Position numbers and translations under genes: made by a program
Source of the DNA: an uncultured Acidimicrobiales bacterium
GTDB lineage: Bacteria; Actinomycetota; Acidimicrobiia; Acidimicrobiales; SZUA-35
DNA: 64,000 bases
Assembly: GCA_937922045.1 (NCBI GenBank)
Contig: CAKZXA010000004.1
Location: 42,878-106,877, forward strand
Reading direction: 5' to 3'
In this document: piece after piece, positions 4,076 to 54,098 of the stretch
Layout of the letters: each line of letters begins with the position of its first letter
Position numbering within the stretch: position 1 is the first letter of the stretch
Notes under the pieces: generated by a model
Seen by the model: only the letters and a program-made list of their open reading frames with translations
Database searches by the model: none
Told to the model about the DNA's origin: nothing

Positions 4076-4251
4076 GTCGTTTGGACTCCCCAAAACTAGA
4101 CTCCGCAACCGGACCGACAGCGGCCGGAAACGAACATTTCTTGATCACGCGACATTACCCGCAAACCCTTTCCGCTGCGCACCAGTCGACCGTTTTGTTA
4201 CAAACGACCCTCCGACCTAGAATCGGTCGAATCTCGGACTCAGGGGGTCTG

Positions 4252-10624: not shown

Positions 10625-11839
10625 TTAGGAATCGGTCTGGTGACGGCGCAGCTCACGACGAGCGATAACCATGCGATGGACCTCATCCGGACCATCAGCG
10701 ATCCGCAAGGATCGCAGGCTGGCATACCAGTTGGCCAATGGCGTGTCGTCGGAAACCCCGGCCGCTCCATGAACCTGGATGGCCCGGTCGACGATGCTAC
10801 AGGCAGCCTCGAGCACGTGAACCTTGAGCAGCGACATGGTGGGAGCTGCCGCCTTGTCCCCCTCATTATCCATTAGCCAGGCGGTACGCAGGGTGAGCAA
10901 CCGCGCCGCCTCGATCTGGATTCGGGCATCGGCCACCCAGTCCATCACGTTTGATCGAGTGGAGACCAAGGCCCCAAAGGTCGATCGTTGCTGCGCTCGC
11001 TGGCACATGAGAGCCAGCGCAGCCTCAGCGATTCCGATGCTTCGCATACAGTGCTGAACCCGGGCAGGACCGAGCCGAGCCTGTCCGATGGCGAAGCCAC
11101 CGCCGACCTGGCCCAGCAGCGCCGAATCGGGTAGGCGCACCTGGTCGAAATCCAACTCAGCGTGCCCGTGGCCGACGTCGAAGTAGCCGAACTTCGGAAG
11201 GTCGCGCACGACGGTGAGGCCGGGGGTGTCTCGCGGAACGATGAAGACCGAGTGTCGACCGTGGCGGCCAGACGAAGCGCTGGTGTCGGTAGTGGCCAGC
11301 ACCATCAGGTACGCACAGGAAGGGTGCATCACGCCACTGATGTACCACTTGCGGCCGTTGAGAACCCAGCCATCAGCGACCGGTGAAGCCTCCATGGCAA
11401 TGTTGGAGGCGTCGCTCGACGCTGTGTCGGGCTCGGTCATGGCGAAGGCCGACCGGATCATGCCGTCGAGCTGGGGTCGAAGCCAGCGCTCTTTTTGCTC
11501 GTCCGAACCGTAGATCAACAGGGCATCGGCGTTGATGCTGCTGGGAGCATCACAGTTCAACGCCTCCTGCGCTACTCGGCTTGTTCCCAACATCTCGGCT
11601 AGCGGCGCGTAATCGACAAAGCTCAGCCCCGGGCCGCAGTCTGGATCGCGCACGCACAGGTTCCACAAACCAGCCGACTTGGCCTCGGTCTTGAGATGTT
11701 CAAGCGTGGCCGAAACGGTTCCGGGTTCGGCCGCTATCTCTTCGGCCACCCTCCCCTCGGCCGGTGTTATCACCTCGTCGAGAAAGGACCGGAGTTCTCT
11801 GGCATAGCCTGACGACCTCGTCGATTGGGTGAAGTCCAT
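10625..11839 (-). CDS. Acyl-CoA dehydrogenase family protein
   Basis: 404 aa with ACAD hallmarks (AFAMTEPDTASSDASN, WYISGV, C-terminal catalytic region IADGPDEVHRMVIAR). Confidence 0.9.
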   Translation of the reverse strand: MDFTQSTRSSGYARELRSFLDEVITPAEGRVAEEIAAEPGTVSATLEHLKTEAKSAGLWNLCVRDPDCGPGLSFVDYAPLAEMLGTSRVAQEALNCDAPSSINADALLIYGSDEQKERWLRPQLDGMIRSAFAMTEPDTASSDASNIAMEASPVADGWVLNGRKWYISGVMHPSCAYLMVLATTDTSASSGRHGRHSVFIVPRDTPGLTVVRDLPKFGYFDVGHGHAELDFDQVRLPDSALLGQVGGGFAIGQARLGPARVQHCMRSIGIAEAALALMCQRAQQRSTFGALVSTRSNVMDWVADARIQIEAARLLTLRTAWLMDNEGDKAAAPTMSLLKVHVLEAACSIVDRAIQVHGAAGVSDDTPLANWYASLRSLRIADGPDEVHRMVIARRELRRHQTDS

Positions 11840-11860: not shown

Positions 11861-12904
11861 TCATACTACCGCTAGCTGAGTGATCGGTTGACCCGCCAAC
11901 GTGGGACCTGAGGTATGCAGATGGCATCGCACCCAACCACCGTCGTCGAGTGGAAACGGATCGGGGAACTGGGTTGAGCAGATGTCCAGTGCATGAGGGC
12001 ACCGCTCGGCAAAGGGGCACGACTCCGTCGGCGCGCTGCCCGATGCGCCTAGCTCGCCTCCTACCGTCAGCTCACGCCGACGTCGGCTCTTCAAGGGTTG
12101 AAGCTTCGGGTCAGGGTCCGGGATCGAGGCCAGCAGGAGCTCCGTGTAGGGATGCCGCGGCTCCTCACAGAGCCGATCCGCCTCACCGGTCTCGACGATG
12201 CGGCTGTGATACATCACCGCTATCCGATCGGAGATATGACGCACGACGGCCAGGTCGTGAGCGATGAAGAGGTAGGCGGCACCGGTCTCGTCCTGCAACC
12301 GCTCCAGCAAATTGATGACCTGGCTCTGCGTCGACACATCCAGGGCGGAGACCGGCTCGTCCAGCACCAGTAGTTCTGGTTCGGTGGCGAGCGCTCGAGC
12401 CACCGCTATTCGCTGGCGCTGCCCGCCCGAGAACTCATAGGGATAGCGCTCCAGATGGTGTGCCTCCAGGCCAACGCTGATCAGCAACTCGGCGGCTCGA
12501 GCTTGGCGGGCCGCCCGGTCGAGGCCGAAGTGGAGCTGTAGGGGCTCGCCAACGATTTGGCCGACCGTCATCGAGGGGTTCAGCGACCCGACCGGGTCCT
12601 GAAAGACCACCTGGACCGCCCGTCGATAGGCGGCGGGAACGCTGCGGCCAAAGCCGGTCACGTCGAAATCACCAAACCGGATCGTGCCCGATGCTGGCTG
12701 GATGAACTGCAGTACGGCGCGCCCGATCGTGGTCTTTCCCGACCCCGACTCGCCAACCAAGCCCAACGTCTCTCCTCGCCCGATCGACAAGGATGCGCCC
12801 TGAACCGCCTTGACGTCGGACTGTCGTTGCCACGGCCACTGGCCCCGGCCACCGGGAAAGGTGATGGCAAGGTCGCTGATCTCCAACAGTGGACGTTCAG
12901 TCAT
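11861..12904 (-). CDS. Peptide/nickel ABC transporter ATP-binding protein (DppF/OppF-like)
   Basis: The ORF reaches 13030, but its first 42 aa are Arg-rich and overlap the upstream gene. ATG at 12904 (MTERPLLEISDLAITF) overlaps the upstream stop by 8 nt. Walker A GESGSGKTT, FSGGQRQRIAVARA, LLVLDEPVSALD, and a C-terminal oligopeptide-type extension with Cys residues. Confidence 0.85.
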   Translation of the reverse strand: MTERPLLEISDLAITFPGGRGQWPWQRQSDVKAVQGASLSIGRGETLGLVGESGSGKTTIGRAVLQFIQPASGTIRFGDFDVTGFGRSVPAAYRRAVQVVFQDPVGSLNPSMTVGQIVGEPLQLHFGLDRAARQARAAELLISVGLEAHHLERYPYEFSGGQRQRIAVARALATEPELLVLDEPVSALDVSTQSQVINLLERLQDETGAAYLFIAHDLAVVRHISDRIAVMYHSRIVETGEADRLCEEPRHPYTELLLASIPDPDPKLQPLKSRRRRELTVGGELGASGSAPTESCPFAERCPHALDICSTQFPDPFPLDDGGWVRCHLHTSGPTLAGQPITQLAVV

Positions 12905-14951
12905 AACGCGGCACCTCCTCGGTGGCCTTCGAGGTTTCGCCCGGATTTTGGAACGCTGCGGCCCCACCGATGCCGAGCACGACCGACTCGTTGGCCACAC
13001 CGTCGAGGTCGAGCTCCTCGGCCCGCACACAACGCGTCAACGAGTGCCCAGCGGGCTGCAACTCGATTGGTTGGTCGCAGCGCTCGTCGGCGTAATCGCA
13101 GCGAGGAGCGAAGTGACAGCCTGTTGGCCATTGCCACGGAGGCGGCACGACGCCAGGGATCGTGGCCAGCTCAGAGCTTCGGTTCTCATTGCGAGGAATC
13201 GCCCTGATCATCCCTTCGGTGTAGGGGTGGTTCGGCTCATGGAAGACCTCGGCCAAGCGCCCGGTCTCCACAATCTGACCGGCATACATGACCGCCACCC
13301 GATCGGCTAGGTCGGCAACAACGCCAAGATCATGGGTGATCAGAAGGACCGAGACCCCGAGCTCTTCGGACAGCTCACCGAGCAGATCGAGAACCTGGCC
13401 CTGCACGGTTACGTCGAGGGCGGTTGTCGGTTCATCGGCGATCAACAGCTTGGGCCGACAGGCCAAGGCCATAGCGATAACGACCCGTTGAGCCATGCCT
13501 CCGGAGAACTGGTGAGGGTAGGCATCTATGCGGACCTCTGGGTTCGGGATGCCAACGCGAGTCATCAACTCGATCGTCCGTTGCCTGGCCGCCGACTTGC
13601 TCAGGCCAAGGTGGTGTCGTAACGGCTCACTGATCTGACGCCCCACCGTGTAGGCCGGATTCAGTGCCGCCGACGGCTCCTGAGAAATGAGACCGATCTC
13701 CTTGCCGCGAATCGACCGCAGCTCATCGAAGTCTTTGCCGACGAGTTCTTCACCGTCGAACATGATGGAGGAGGCCGACGCCTGGCCTGGGTCAGGCACA
13801 AGACCGAGCAAGGAAAGAGCCGAAATCGATTTGCCAGAACCCGACTCTCCTACCAGCGCCAAGACCTCGCCATGGGCGATGTCGAAATTCACGCCCTGCA
13901 CAACAGCAACATCTTCGCTGGTCCCGGGGCGAGGGAAGTGAACCGAGAGATCCCGCACCGAAACGATGCTGTCTCGCGAGGGGCCAGCACCGGAGGCTGG
14001 AGCCCGAACCACGTCGCCAACGCCGACACGACCACCACGAGCTTCTCGGCCAAACGCATCGCGGAGTCCGTCACCCAACACGTTGAACGCCACAACCGTC
14101 ACGAAGATAGCCAAACCGGGTGGGATGGCCGGCCAGATGGCCCGGTTGATATTGGTCTTTGCGTTGTTCAGCATCAAGCCCCAACTGACCTGGTCCTGAT
14201 TGGCGCCTAGGCCAAGAAAACTCAGGGCCGCCTCCGCCAGCACCGACTGAGCGAACAGCAGCGTGGTCTGCACGATCAAGGCCGGGGCGATGTTTGGCAA
14301 GATATGGCGGAACATGATGCGTCGGTTGGAGGCTCCCGACGCCCTGGCCCCGTCGACGTAGAGTTCTTCGCGTGCGGCGAAGACCTCGGCCCTGGTGAGC
14401 CGGGTGATGACCATCGAATAGACGATGCCGATGGCGAACATGGCCTTCACGAGGCCCGGTCCAACCACCGCGATGATGGCGATAGCGAGCACGACAGCCG
14501 GGATGGCGACCAGGGTCTCCACAAACCGCATTATGATGCGATCGACCCAGCCGCGGAAATAGCCGATGAGCAGACCGAGCGGAATGCCGATCCCCAAGGC
14601 AACCGTGCACGCAATCAGCCCGGCCAGCAGGGCATAGCGACCGCCGTAGACGATACGGGTAAGGATGTCTCGACCCACCGCGTCGGTACCCAGCCAGTAG
14701 TCGCCGCTCGGCGGTTTGAAGAAGTCGGAAAAGTTCGTGGCCTGGTTCGGATCGTGACCGGTGATGAAGGGCGCCAACAACACCGAGCAAACAGCCAAGA
14801 CCATGAGAAAGCCAGCAGCAGCGAGCGCTACCTTGTTTCGCTTGAAACGAATCCAGAAGCGGTTTTTGCCGTCCCCAGCGTCACCGTCTTCGAGCCCTGA
14901 GCCATCAGCGGGCGGGATCGGCTCGGCAACGAGAAGTTCGATCTCGCTCAT
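12897..14951 (-). CDS. Fused ABC permease (DppC/OppC-like) and ATP-binding protein (DppD/OppD-like)
   Basis: Single 684-aa ORF. The N-terminal ~300 aa is a BPD-type permease (EAA-loop region YVDGARASGASNRRIMFRHILPN). The C-terminal ~330 aa is an ATPase (GESGSGKS, FSGGMAQRVVIAMA, LLIADEPTTALD). Confidence 0.85.
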   Translation of the reverse strand: MSEIELLVAEPIPPADGSGLEDGDAGDGKNRFWIRFKRNKVALAAAGFLMVLAVCSVLLAPFITGHDPNQATNFSDFFKPPSGDYWLGTDAVGRDILTRIVYGGRYALLAGLIACTVALGIGIPLGLLIGYFRGWVDRIIMRFVETLVAIPAVVLAIAIIAVVGPGLVKAMFAIGIVYSMVITRLTRAEVFAAREELYVDGARASGASNRRIMFRHILPNIAPALIVQTTLLFAQSVLAEAALSFLGLGANQDQVSWGLMLNNAKTNINRAIWPAIPPGLAIFVTVVAFNVLGDGLRDAFGREARGGRVGVGDVVRAPASGAGPSRDSIVSVRDLSVHFPRPGTSEDVAVVQGVNFDIAHGEVLALVGESGSGKSISALSLLGLVPDPGQASASSIMFDGEELVGKDFDELRSIRGKEIGLISQEPSAALNPAYTVGRQISEPLRHHLGLSKSAARQRTIELMTRVGIPNPEVRIDAYPHQFSGGMAQRVVIAMALACRPKLLIADEPTTALDVTVQGQVLDLLGELSEELGVSVLLITHDLGVVADLADRVAVMYAGQIVETGRLAEVFHEPNHPYTEGMIRAIPRNENRSSELATIPGVVPPPWQWPTGCHFAPRCDYADERCDQPIELQPAGHSLTRCVRAEELDLDGVANESVVLGIGGAAAFQNPGETSKATEEVPRYD

Positions 14952-50827: not shown

Positions 50828-51907
50828 GTGTCTCAAGCTCCAGCAAGTACCACCCCCCAACTCGGACTCATCGGCCTAGGCCGCATGGGCGCCAACATGA
50901 CCCGCCGGCTCGCCGCCGCTGGCATCGATGTGATCGCCTACGACCGCGACCCTGAACGAGCAGCGGCACTGGCCGACGACGGGGTGGCCAGAGCGGCCAG
51001 CAGCGTCGAGGAACTCGTAGCCGGGCTCGAGGGGCCGCGCTCGATCTGGATCATGGTCCCCGCCGCCTTCGTCGGCGATGTGATCGAAGATCTGATCCCC
51101 CACCTAAGCCCGAACGACACCATCATCGATGGTGGCAACACGCACTACCCTCTCGACCTTGAACGGGCACGGCGGCTCGGTGACCATGATGTTCACATGG
51201 TCGATGTTGGAACCAGCGGCGGTGTCCATGGCCTGGAGAGAGGCTATTGCTTGATGATCGGCGGGGAGACCGAACCGGTCGAACGCCTCACCCCTATCTT
51301 CGAGGCGTTGGCTCCCGGCGTCGATGCCGCCGAACGTTCCTACGGGCGCGACGGTGAGGTGGCCCAGGCCGAAAAGGGTTATCTTCACTGCGGTCCCGTC
51401 GGCTCCGGTCACTTCGTGAAGATGGTGCACAACGGCATCGAGTACGCCATGATGGCCGCCTACGCCGAAGGCTTCGCCCTCCTGAGCAGGGCCAACATCG
51501 GTTCGGCATCCCGGGCCGACGATGCCGAAACGGCCCCGCTCAGCGATCCCCGCCTGTACGACTACGACATAGCGGTAAACGACGTGGCTGAGGTATGGCG
51601 ACGGGGCAGCGTCATCGGCTCTTGGTTGCTCGATCTCACCGCTGAAGCACTAGTCGCTGACCCTGCCCTCGATGCGTATCAGGGCCGCGTGTCGGACTCG
51701 GGCGAAGGACGTTGGACCGCTCTCGCCGCCATCGAAACCGGCACGCCAACGCCCACCATCGTCGACGCTCTGTTCAGCCGATTCTCCTCGCGCGACAACG
51801 ATCTGTTTGCCAACAAAGTCCTCTCCGCCATGCGTGCTGGTTTTGGCGGCCATGTAGAACGAGCGACCGATCCTACGCCCGGAAACGACCCAGGGAGCAC
51901 CACATGA
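50828..51907 (+). CDS. gnd: 6-phosphogluconate dehydrogenase, short (YqeC/Gnd-like, decarboxylating) form
   Basis: GTG start. GLIGLGRMGANMTRRL Rossmann motif, IIDGGNTHY, DVGTSGGVHGLERGYCLMIGG and GHFVKMVHNGIEYAMM. Confidence 0.85.
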   Translation: MSQAPASTTPQLGLIGLGRMGANMTRRLAAAGIDVIAYDRDPERAAALADDGVARAASSVEELVAGLEGPRSIWIMVPAAFVGDVIEDLIPHLSPNDTIIDGGNTHYPLDLERARRLGDHDVHMVDVGTSGGVHGLERGYCLMIGGETEPVERLTPIFEALAPGVDAAERSYGRDGEVAQAEKGYLHCGPVGSGHFVKMVHNGIEYAMMAAYAEGFALLSRANIGSASRADDAETAPLSDPRLYDYDIAVNDVAEVWRRGSVIGSWLLDLTAEALVADPALDAYQGRVSDSGEGRWTALAAIETGTPTPTIVDALFSRFSSRDNDLFANKVLSAMRAGFGGHVERATDPTPGNDPGSTT

Positions 51908-53295
51908 GCACAGTCAGCCACGCCGCCGACGCACTGATTCTGTTCGGCATCACCGGAGACCTGGCCCGACGCAAGCTGTTCAGCGCTCTTTACGGGCTTG
52001 AGAAATCCGCTCTTCTCGACGGACCCGTCGTCGGGGTTGCCTCGCGGCCCTGGTCGGACGACGATCTACACGAGGCCGCACGAACCGCCCTCGAACACGA
52101 CGTCGCCGATGCCCCCGACGAGGCGATCGACGAGTCGGTGTGGGCCCGACTCAAAGGCCGCCTGACCTACGTGGCTGGCGACTATCGGGAACCCGACACC
52201 TTCGACCGGGTGGCGGCCGCGGTGGGCGAGTCCGCCCGTCCGGTGTCGTATCTCGCCATCCCCCCGTTCCTGTTCACCACGGTCGTTCAAGGGCTGGGAG
52301 CAGTCGGCTTGAACCGGGGCAGCGTGGTGTTGGAGAAGCCGTTCGGTCGAGACACCGAAACCGCTCGCGCTCTCGACACCGAGGTCAAGGAGCACTTTGA
52401 CGAGGAGCGCATTTTCCGCATCGACCATTTCCTCGGCAAAGAGCCCGTCCTCAACCTCATGGTGTTCCGCTTCGCCAACTCGATCCTTGAACCCCTCTGG
52501 AATCGCCACCACATCACCAGCGTGACCATCACCATGTCTGAAGCGTTTGGCGTGGAAGGACGAGGCAAGTTCTACGCCGAGGTCGGCGCCCTGCGAGACG
52601 TGGTGCAGAATCACCTGCTCCAGGTGCTTGCTCTGTTGGCTATGGAGCCACCGGTTTCCGACGACGCCGACTCACTGTCCGACGAGGTGGTCAAGGTGCT
52701 TCGCTCCATGCGACCTTTCGACCCGGCCAAGACCTACCGGGGGCAGTACACGGGTGATGGCGAACGTCCAGGGTTTCTCGATGAAGACGGCGTCGAGACC
52801 AACGCCGACACCGAGACCATGGTGCTGATCGACGCCGAGATCGACTCCTGGCGTTGGGCCGGGGTTCCGTGGCGCATCCAAACCGGCAAGGCGCTGGCGA
52901 GGACCTACACGGAGGCTGTGATCGAGTTCAGCCAGCCGCCTCGGCCACTCTTCGCCGCCGACGCTTGCGCGCCGGAACCCAACCGTCTGCGCTTCAGGAT
53001 GAAACCCGACTCAACCATCGAATTCGAGATGGAGGCCAAGTCACCGGGTGCCTTGCTCACGAGTGAAACCGTGCAGCTTTCGCTAGTACCGATGGAAGAC
53101 GACGAGGCCATCAGCCCCTATGAGCGTCTCCTGGGCGACGCAATCGCAGGAGACAGGCGTCTCTTTGCCCGGTGGGATCAGGTCGACCTTGCCTGGCAGA
53201 TCGTGCAGCCGATTCTCGACAACCCTCCCCCGCTGCATCTCTATCGCTATGGCGCGACGGTCGACGAAGCGAGCGACCAGCTTCACCGTTCCTAG
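51904..53295 (+). CDS. zwf: Glucose-6-phosphate 1-dehydrogenase
   Basis: ATG 51904 overlaps the gnd stop as ATGA (the ORF-track upstream extension is Arg-rich). LILFGITGDLARRKLF (NADP site), RIDHFLGKE (active-site motif) and VQNHLLQ. Confidence 0.9.
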   Translation: MSTVSHAADALILFGITGDLARRKLFSALYGLEKSALLDGPVVGVASRPWSDDDLHEAARTALEHDVADAPDEAIDESVWARLKGRLTYVAGDYREPDTFDRVAAAVGESARPVSYLAIPPFLFTTVVQGLGAVGLNRGSVVLEKPFGRDTETARALDTEVKEHFDEERIFRIDHFLGKEPVLNLMVFRFANSILEPLWNRHHITSVTITMSEAFGVEGRGKFYAEVGALRDVVQNHLLQVLALLAMEPPVSDDADSLSDEVVKVLRSMRPFDPAKTYRGQYTGDGERPGFLDEDGVETNADTETMVLIDAEIDSWRWAGVPWRIQTGKALARTYTEAVIEFSQPPRPLFAADACAPEPNRLRFRMKPDSTIEFEMEAKSPGALLTSETVQLSLVPMEDDEAISPYERLLGDAIAGDRRLFARWDQVDLAWQIVQPILDNPPPLHLYRYGATVDEASDQLHRS

Positions 53296-53310: not shown

Positions 53311-53757
53311 TCAGAGCGCACGGAGTGCCTCGAGGGCCTTGTTGGCGTGGCTGTTCATGTCGGTCTCACTTTTCAAGACCGCCTTTACCCGGCGATCGGC
53401 ACCAACCACGTAGGTAACCCGCTTGATCGGGAGGGGCCCGAACCGGGCGACACCGAACTGCCGGGCGACCATCTTGTTCGGATCGGACAGAAGGGGAAAG
53501 CCCAACTGGTTTGCTTCTGCGAACGCCTGCTGCTGATCGGACCGATCAGGCGACACTCCAACGATCCTTGCCCCGAGTTCTTCGAACTCCGACGACAGAT
53601 CGCGAAAGTGACATGATTCCTTCGTTCAACCGGGGGTCATGGCCTTGATGTAGAAGTAGATGACCAGGGGGCCCTGTGTGATCAGCGAATCGAACGTGAC
53701 CGTTTGACCCGACTGATCGACGAGAGCGAAATCTTCGACGGTGTCTCCGACCTTCAT
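53311..53757 (-). CDS. bcp: Bcp-type (AhpC/TSA family) thiol peroxidase with an in-frame TGA (53626-53628) at the peroxidatic Cys codon: candidate selenoprotein, alternatively a nonsense pseudogene
   Basis: My own translation from ATG 53757 is MKVGDTVEDFALVDQSGQTVTFDSLITQGPLVIYFYIKAMTPG-TGA-TKESCHFRDLSSEFEELGARIVGVSPDRSDQQQAFAEANQLGFPLLSDPNK...ALRAL. It is one frame, 148 codons, with a single interruption. The ORF track lists only the last 81 aa (53311-53556). Confidence 0.6.
53598..53631 (-). other. Stem-loop that includes and follows the in-frame UGA (candidate bacterial SECIS element; a second hairpin lies at 53573-53591)
   Basis: RNA GGUUG-AA-CGAAGG-AAUCAUGUCA-CUUUCG-CGAUC. It has a 6-bp upper stem (one G-U), a 2-nt bulge and a 5-bp lower stem (two G-U), and the apical loop contains GU. 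The second hairpin is GAGUU-CGAAG-AACUC. Neither is a textbook match in spacing. Confidence 0.3.
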
Positions 53758-53879: not shown

Positions 53880-54098
53880 TCACCGAACCACCGTTGGCAA
53901 GCCCACCGACCGATTTGCGGATCTCGCCGCTTCGCTGAGCCCCAAGAACAGGCACCGCACTGTGGTCCGGCCTCCGGCTGCCACACCAACCAGATCGAGC
54001 AGGCACCTCTCAGCCTGGCGAGTGACAGCGGGCGGAAGGTCGTTCGCCGTGGTCTCGTGAAGGAAGTCGAGCACGTGGTTCGAGGACGCCATGGTCAT
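53880..54098 (-). pseudogene. Probable N-terminal remnant of an MmgE/PrpD-family gene
   Basis: M(T)MASSNHVLDFLHETTANDLPPAVTRQAERCLLDLVGVAAGG matches the characteristic PrpD N-terminus (..DLP..V...AkrClLD.lG.alAG). The frame stops after ~70 codons, and only ~120 bp remain before the next gene, whereas the family is ~450 aa. Confidence 0.35.

Follow-up and report, generated by a model that had tools for sequence, protein, structure and literature searches.

Whether an in-frame TGA codon interrupts a peroxiredoxin gene or specifies its catalytic residue is the question raised by minus-strand positions 53311-53757 of the 64,000-nt stretch of contig CAKZXA010000004.1 analyzed here (the window), which derives from an uncultured Acidimicrobiales bacterium. 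The initial annotation described a 148-codon Bcp-like frame that begins at the ATG at 53757 and is broken by a single TGA (53626-53628) at the codon for the peroxidatic cysteine, and it weighed selenocysteine (Sec) against a nonsense mutation and a sequencing error. Translation bears out this frame, and comparison with homologues leads us to conclude that 53757..53311 is in all likelihood one intact PrxQ/BCP peroxiredoxin gene whose peroxidatic residue is Sec, encoded by that UGA.

The translated frame reads MKVGDTVEDFALVDQSGQTVTFDSLITQGPLVIYFYIKAMTPG*TKESCHFRDL...ALRAL* (stops shown as *), in which the only internal stop is the TGA, found in the codon 44 context ...YFYIKAMTPG[TGA]TKESCHFRDL.... 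A mechanical list of open reading frames (ORFs) holds the gene only as an 81-residue piece (53311..53556) and a 43-residue piece (53626..53757). With Cys put for the stop, residues 3-126 of the product match positions 1-123 of the 124-position Pfam AhpC-TSA profile (PF00578, E 4.6e-32), and residues 1-148 match PDB entry 5epf, 'Peroxiredoxin' (E 8e-43), which we take to be M. tuberculosis PrxQ B. Alignment with MG1655 bcp (b2480, the thiol peroxidase Bcp of E. coli; 36% identity, E 1e-29) pairs the CxxxxC of that enzyme with U44 and C49, confirming that the TGA occupies the peroxidatic Cys position and that the resolving Cys five residues on is retained; the E. coli active-site sequence given in the initial annotation proved accurate. 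Further family features are the T-x-x-C motif with which helix alpha2 begins in peroxiredoxins, here of the form T41-P-G-[TGA]44, a Cys49 placed at the +5 position typical of the resolving Cys in atypical 2-Cys PrxQ enzymes, and R113 (..PIKRVTY..), which is invariant in alignments A2 and A4 and corresponds to the conserved Arg that has an active-site role in peroxiredoxins. Among NCBIfam models the Bcp and PrxQ equivalogs rank highest, each scoring under its cutoff (101.6 bits against a cutoff of 140 for the Bcp equivalog NF006960); the gene belongs to another branch of the PrxQ/BCP subfamily than E. coli Bcp and is no Bcp orthologue. The conserved Pro of the PxxxTxxC motif is replaced by Ile37 and, because this Pro is absent, we regard the gene as a divergent variant of the PrxQ/BCP family and not a textbook member. 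Coordinates are collected in Table 1.

Table 1. Features of the peroxiredoxin locus and of its surroundings
Feature	Position	Strand	Basis or remark
PrxQ/BCP-type peroxiredoxin, complete coding sequence	53311..53757	minus	148 sense codons including one UGA; translation, Pfam, PDB match
ATG start of the peroxiredoxin gene	53755..53757	minus	first start past an in-frame TAG 14 codons upstream
ATC, Ile37, at the canonical Pro place of the PxxxTxxC motif	53647..53649	minus	
In-frame TGA, codon 44, peroxidatic-Cys position, proposed Sec codon	53626..53628	minus	aligns with the Bcp and 5epf Cys
TGT, Cys49, resolving-Cys position, UxxxxC (5 residues past the proposed Sec codon)	53611..53613	minus	aligns with the second Cys of Bcp
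Long imperfect mRNA hairpin, +19 to +75 from the U of UGA, candidate bacterial Sec insertion sequence (SECIS)	53554..53610	minus	folding and comparison
Apical stem-loop of the long hairpin (CGGAGUUC-GAA-GAACUCGG region)	53573..53591	minus	GAA loop at 53581-53583
Terminal TGA stop of the peroxiredoxin gene	53311-53313	minus	
6-phosphogluconate dehydrogenase-like and glucose-6-phosphate dehydrogenase genes	50828-53295	plus	tail-to-tail with the peroxiredoxin gene, 15 nt between stops
MmgE/PrpD-family gene remnant	53880-54098	minus	profile positions 5-43 of 244, 27.4 bits, under cutoff

The evidence that carries this conclusion comes from the homologues. A scan of species-representative genomes gave 13 loci, and a metagenome scan with a profile of TGA forms gave 520 relatives, 80 of which were kept; together these scans yielded 88 homologues with the active-site motif. 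Of these, 38 have TGA as the catalytic codon and 50 have TGC or TGT, with no instance of TAA or TAG; because this codon is either TGA or a Cys codon and no other stop, chance cannot explain the pattern. The ten closest genome matches (54-73% amino acid identity), from Acidimicrobiia, Acidimicrobiales and Actinomycetota metagenome-assembled genomes (MAGs) that include complete long-read chromosomes, carry TGA at exactly the same codon without exception, so that the orthologue comparison asked for by the initial annotation returned TGA, not TGC, in the closest relatives. L003 (OZ244195.1) and L004 (CBDCFR010000013.1) are among the carriers of the TGA gene, and three remoter genome loci (Actinokineospora, Terriglobus and Ignavibacteriales) have a Cys codon. 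In a neighbour-joining tree the TGA genes form in essence one clade.

In each of the 36 complete TGA genes the start precedes the TGA by 43-44 codons, and 104-109 open codons follow the TGA up to the homologous stop. Downstream of the TGA, comparison of the window gene with L001 gave a nonsynonymous divergence (dN) of 0.22 and a synonymous divergence (dS) of 1.27, and comparison with L004 gave 0.20 and 1.30, respectively; dN/dS against the nearest relatives is thus ~0.15-0.18, and the downstream frame, which had been named as a test of the Sec proposal, is intact and under purifying selection. Past the catalytic codon, TGA genes and Cys genes have nearly equal group-wide ratios of nonsynonymous to synonymous polymorphism (pN/pS), 0.42 and 0.44, respectively; the region beyond the 'stop' is thus translated and under the same constraint as in genes with no interruption. 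The locus therefore displays two marks of a selenoprotein gene, a Sec/Cys pair and UGA-containing orthologues in other organisms with purifying selection downstream.

The TGA itself is reproducible. The window sequence is contained in contig c_000000800594 (608 kb) of ENA assembly ERZ6863697, and the same TGA occurs in five of five assemblies from different samples or runs (ERZ6863697, ERZ6863811, ERR9287625, ERR9287627 and ERR9287628), the last three being Logan assemblies, with two assemblers or pipelines represented overall. The pair of 43- and 81-residue gene calls recurs in the four assemblies beyond ERZ6863697. These five assemblies represent two haplotypes, the second of which is found in two of the five, and the haplotypes differ inside the peroxiredoxin gene by two third-position single-nucleotide polymorphisms (SNPs), both synonymous and lying one on either side of the TGA.

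Two hairpins had been pointed out past the UGA, and both exist: the one at 53573-53591 forms the apex of a longer hairpin whose conservation in TGA genes and decay in Cys genes agree with the Sec proposal, whereas the one at 53598-53631 is commoner in Cys genes and is not Sec-specific. Numbered from the U of UGA, position i of the long hairpin pairs with 94-i, giving a structure symmetric about +47 that comprises a lower stem (20-28/66-74), a middle stem (31-34/60-63), an upper stem (38-45/49-56) and a 3-nt loop (46-48). This structure was taken from single-sequence folds of these same sequences and then tested by pair counting. Across the 21-pair structure 83.8% of cells are paired in the 38 TGA genes compared with 63.4% in the 50 Cys genes, and the mean number of paired positions out of 32 is 22.2 and 16.2, respectively (Mann-Whitney p = 4e-13, uncorrected for phylogeny). 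A hairpin with its apex near +47 is present in 79% of TGA genes and 28% of Cys genes, and this is the sole hairpin position enriched in TGA genes. In alignment A3, 85.3% of cells are paired, compared with 26-49% when the partners are slid; the covariation score is 0.204 versus 0.165 in shuffles, a value reached by none of 500, and 28 cells are changed on both sides versus 12.7 expected, again reached by none of 500 shuffles. Plain RNAalifold, run in Python on 37 sequences, returned an uninformative consensus.

Individual positions show the same contrast. At pair 21:73, formed between two synonymous third positions, 15 TGA genes have CG and 14 have UA, and 39 of the 50 Cys genes have a CA mismatch; the type of pair varies at 34:60 and 45:49 as well. 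Codon choice is frozen in TGA genes alone at Val+22 (GUG) and Glu+13 (GAG). Only such single codons are constrained; the mean synonymous-site entropy over the hairpin codons is alike in Sec and Cys genes (1.10 vs 1.13). Immediately before the UGA, Gly codon 43 (GGT, 53629-53631) shows a strong GGU bias in the Sec forms, with a synonymous entropy of 0.78 compared with 1.59 in Cys genes, which may reflect a context effect on UGA decoding.

A four-member Cys subclade (L038, L042, L045 and L046, with the catalytic codon near 4130, or at 381 in L042) is nested in the Sec clade. Its members fold weakly over the hairpin region, at -12 to -17 compared with a mean of -31 kcal/mol, and so provide a partial natural control; they are also lower in G+C, which confounds this fold comparison. 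The subclade looks like a case of Sec-to-Cys reversion that would have been followed by decay of the RNA element.

How closely the hairpin resembles a bacterial SECIS (bSECIS) can be judged against the bSECISearch model, for which an apical loop of 3-9 nt, an upper stem of 4-16 bp, a G as first or second loop nucleotide, a minimum free energy (MFE) of -7.5 kcal/mol or lower and a spacing of 16-37 nt from the UGA to the apical loop are given (PMC13188914). The window element shares with this consensus, and with its prototype, the SECIS of E. coli fdhF, the form of a stem-loop inside the coding sequence, 3' of the UGA, with a small apical loop; it has a GAA loop, an upper stem of about 6-9 bp and an MFE of -28.6 kcal/mol, and 33 of the 38 TGA genes have a G at one of the first two nucleotides of the loop. 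It differs in being a long hairpin of ~57 nt with internal loops. The only other hairpin that recurs, with its apex near +17, was considered as an alternative SECIS of canonical spacing and rejected, since it occurs in 70-78% of Cys genes but in 34-45% of TGA genes, and among the homologues we found no TGA-enriched hairpin with its apex in the model range.

Precedent for such a gene exists in both the protein family and the host order. Sec-containing peroxiredoxins (Sec-Prx) with a TxxU motif (COG1225, pfam00578) are an established and abundant bacterial selenoprotein family, with 43 members counted in the Sargasso Sea (COG1225), 253 in the Global Ocean Sampling (GOS) data and 91 in 78 sequenced bacteria, where they rank as the seventh commonest family (PMC1088965, PMC2398784, PMC5029168). 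The experimental foundation of the family is PrxU of Eubacterium acidaminophilum (Soehling et al. 2001, cited in PMC13188914), and published work infers that Cys gave way to Sec several times independently within it. The window gene resembles its members in its AhpC/TSA domain, in the UGA that stands for the peroxidatic Cys, in the existence of widespread Cys homologues, in the usual mis-annotation as truncated and in abundance in marine and other metagenomes. It departs from them in its host, an uncultured Acidimicrobiales bacterium in place of a Clostridium or deltaproteobacterium, and in its motif, given as PxxxTxxU in a review (PMC13188914), since the window gene and 14 relatives have I, L, V or A for the Pro. 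Sec had been thought untypical of such GC-rich actinobacterial genomes, a view contradicted by cultured Acidimicrobiales with SelD, SelA and SelB and 7-15 selenoproteins: Ilumatobacter coccineus has 15, I. nonamiensis 10 and Ca. Microthrix parvicella 7 (Peng et al. 2016, Tables S1 and S2). In addition, selA, selC, selD and a divergent selB are reported for 84 of 84 complete Actinomarina genomes (2026 preprint). For the window itself, the best named matches of the peroxiredoxin gene and of the adjacent glucose-6-phosphate dehydrogenase (G6PD) gene lie in Acidimicrobiales or Acidimicrobiia MAGs, at no more than about 70% identity.

Cys-type actinobacterial PrxQ proteins (5epf; C. glutamicum PrxQ, PMC5811025) are homologous to the window product over the full length, the best Cys homologues reaching ~53-60% identity, and share its active-site helix (..AMTPG[C/U]TKE[A/S]CHFRDL..) with a resolving Cys at +5. 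The window gene differs from them by the proposed Sec, by Ile for Pro and by a hairpin that is mostly absent from Cys genes. The Cys-type enzyme is described as a monomeric, atypical 2-Cys, thioredoxin-dependent peroxidase (C. glutamicum PrxQ, PMC5811025).

Several observations count against Sec insertion, or against the role assigned to the hairpin and the enzyme. Neither tRNA-Sec (sought with ARAGORN) nor selA, selB or selD (sought by tblastn, E. coli proteins as queries) turned up in the window or in about 100 related loci totalling ~450 kb, which amount to a few per cent of a genome and make this result uninformative. The UGA is separated from the apical loop by 42 nt, outside the 16-37 nt of the bSECIS model, although a subset of bSECIS elements falls outside that model according to a review (PMC13188914). 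Taken alone, the window hairpin does not fold significantly better than shuffled sequences (z = -1.46; 17 of 200 fold as well), and Rfam gave no matches at gathering thresholds across the whole window and two noise matches (E 7-10) around the gene. Covariation is slight, as only 5 pairs show double-sided change, a number matched by 77 of 500 shuffles, and the contrast between Sec and Cys hairpins is confounded with phylogeny because the Sec forms are essentially one clade. Finally, with Ile in place of the active-site Pro, peroxidase activity would be less certain than in a textbook PrxQ.

The alternative that survives best, though we consider it improbable, is that the UGA is decoded as Cys or Trp, by a suppressor tRNA, a near-cognate tRNA or a SelB-like delivery of Cys-tRNA, to give a full-length thiol or non-redox protein. 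The evidence for an intact gene and for read-through fits this explanation equally well, and the absence of observed Sec machinery from the loci searched and the departure of the hairpin from standard bSECIS geometry both lean towards it. Some gene callers do assign Trp (P0002, P0003 and P0022), though as an artefact of the chosen genetic code. These Joint Genome Institute (JGI) metagenome gene calls read ...KAMTPGWTKESCHFRDL..., with the Sec-TGA rendered as Trp, and represent a second kind of mis-annotation besides fragmentation. However, the codon alternates with Cys codons alone, and does so at the peroxidatic residue, where Trp would abolish catalysis. Many of the TGA genes, that of the window among them, terminate in a genuine TGA stop and, therefore, TGA is not generally reassigned in them. 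Decoding as Cys would bring no gain over TGC, yet TGA persists through a deep clade, and relatives from the same order possess the complete Sec machinery and many selenoproteins.

A more remote alternative, advanced in the initial annotation, is that a TGC/TGT to TGA nonsense mutation inactivated a Cys-type Bcp, with local decay beside a gene remnant. Such a change needs one base, the public annotation presents the gene as two fragments, and the remnant noted at 53880-54098 is real: it matches the N-terminal part of the MmgE/PrpD family and lies 120 nt upstream. Its decay nevertheless stops short of the peroxiredoxin gene. Of the 22 SNPs that separate the two strain haplotypes, eight cluster in a ~175-bp part of the remnant, as expected for unconstrained DNA, whereas both SNPs inside the peroxiredoxin gene are synonymous. 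Moreover, 38 homologues, ranging down to ~51% identity, carry the TGA and none of them has a second lesion, and the possibility that these are copies of a single recent mobile pseudogene is excluded by the 51-73% divergence of the TGA homologues. The constrained downstream frame, with the low dN/dS given above, and the reproduction of the TGA across assemblies thus lead us to reject a pseudogene as very improbable.

Less probable again is a true stop at the UGA, followed by translation of the downstream 81-104 codons from an internal start, so that two polypeptides would form a split thioredoxin fold. The GTG at 53556 that opens the annotated 81-residue ORF could serve as such a start; however, it is not conserved as a start signal, the break would fall directly before the catalytic residue and delete it, and the ~23 codons that separate the TGA from the GTG (TKESCHFRDLSSEFEELGARIVG) show high protein-level conservation in all homologues, which would be unexplained if they were untranslated. 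Sequencing or assembly error at a true TGC or TGT, for which nothing speaks beyond its a priori possibility in a metagenome assembly, can be set aside as having a negligible probability because all five assemblies, which come from different runs and from two assemblers or pipelines, agree on the A of the TGA, as do both haplotypes, and the same codon recurs in dozens of unrelated assemblies that include long-read complete chromosomes.

With an intact, UGA-containing selenoprotein gene as the preferred explanation, the residue inserted at codon 44 is very probably Sec and the long hairpin is a candidate SECIS element for binding by SelB. In the mechanism we propose, this hairpin (53610-53554), starting ~16-19 nt past the UGA, would recruit a SelB-type elongation factor with Sec-tRNA(Sec), and the UGA would be read as Sec. 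The catalytic cycle is expected to follow that of characterized Cys-type PrxQ enzymes: the U44 selenolate, positioned by Thr41 and the conserved Arg113, would attack the hydroperoxide, the resulting selenenic acid would condense with Cys49 to an intramolecular selenenylsulfide, and thioredoxin would reduce this bond. The selenenylsulfide intermediate is expected because U44 and C49 correspond to the peroxidatic and resolving residues of PrxQ.

The active site varies among the Sec forms in ways that it does not among the Cys forms. The motif Pro is kept in 50 of 50 Cys-type loci and in 115 of 115 Cys-type database proteins, whereas I, L, V or A replaces it in 15 of the 38 Sec forms (the window gene with Ile37, L001-L008, L010, L013-L015, L026 and L041). 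These Pro-less genes are the closest Sec forms, and in 13 of the 15 the resolving Cys is replaced as well, by K or R, the window gene and L041 retaining it. Four forms are thus present in the data, Cys(P,C), Sec(P,C), Sec(I,C) and Sec(I,K/R), the window gene being Sec(I,C). We tentatively offer a broader hypothesis, which we hold to be possible but rather unlikely: that these genes form a Sec-PrxQ clade with its own SECIS class, a ~57-nt hairpin with its apex 42 nt from the UGA that would be matched to a divergent SelB of Acidimicrobiia, and that within this clade an IxxxTxxU subclade, mostly without the resolving Cys, had its active site remodelled after Sec was gained.

The neighbourhood of the gene adds little to its interpretation. 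The tail-to-tail arrangement with genes for NADPH-generating enzymes, G6PD and a 6-phosphogluconate dehydrogenase-like protein, whose NADPH output feeds thioredoxin reductase, is suggestive only of a functional link to a thioredoxin-dependent peroxidase. In the loci compared, neighbouring genes are common only to copies from the same organism, the exception being L013, where an acyl-CoA dehydrogenase homologue lies close to the Sec-Prx gene. No SelW-like CxxU genes were found beside the Sec-Prx genes, a Prx/SelW pairing having been reported in GOS, and a scan for promoters and terminators returned nothing relevant. A scan of the window for other selenoprotein genes, guided by third-position G+C (GC3) and directed at TGA-joined ORF pairs, gave antisense artefacts and one ordinary same-frame pair on the minus strand. 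The two ORFs of this pair, 10625-11839 and 11861-13030 (404 and 389 residues), are separated by one TGA and 21 nt and have the appearance of two ordinary neighbours, not of a single gene read through its stop.

The gene is a further member of a known selenoprotein family and is new only for an uncultured Acidimicrobiales lineage, within an order that has known Sec users; the finding leaves current concepts unchanged. Its immediate consequence is for annotation, since public databases hold this gene and at least 37 homologues only as fragments (here of 43 and 81 residues) or with an active-site Trp, and recognition as a selenoprotein corrects this. The conserved hairpin, with its long spacing, offers a test case for the limits of bSECIS prediction models. 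For the organism, a probable selenoprotein is added to an uncultured lineage of an order whose use of Sec is already published. For the family, the series Cys(P,C) to Sec(P,C) to Sec(I,C) to Sec(I,K/R) may serve as a natural experiment on which active-site features become dispensable once Sec replaces Cys and, if the remodelling of the IxxxTxxU subclade is true, it would imply an altered catalytic cycle or an altered substrate.

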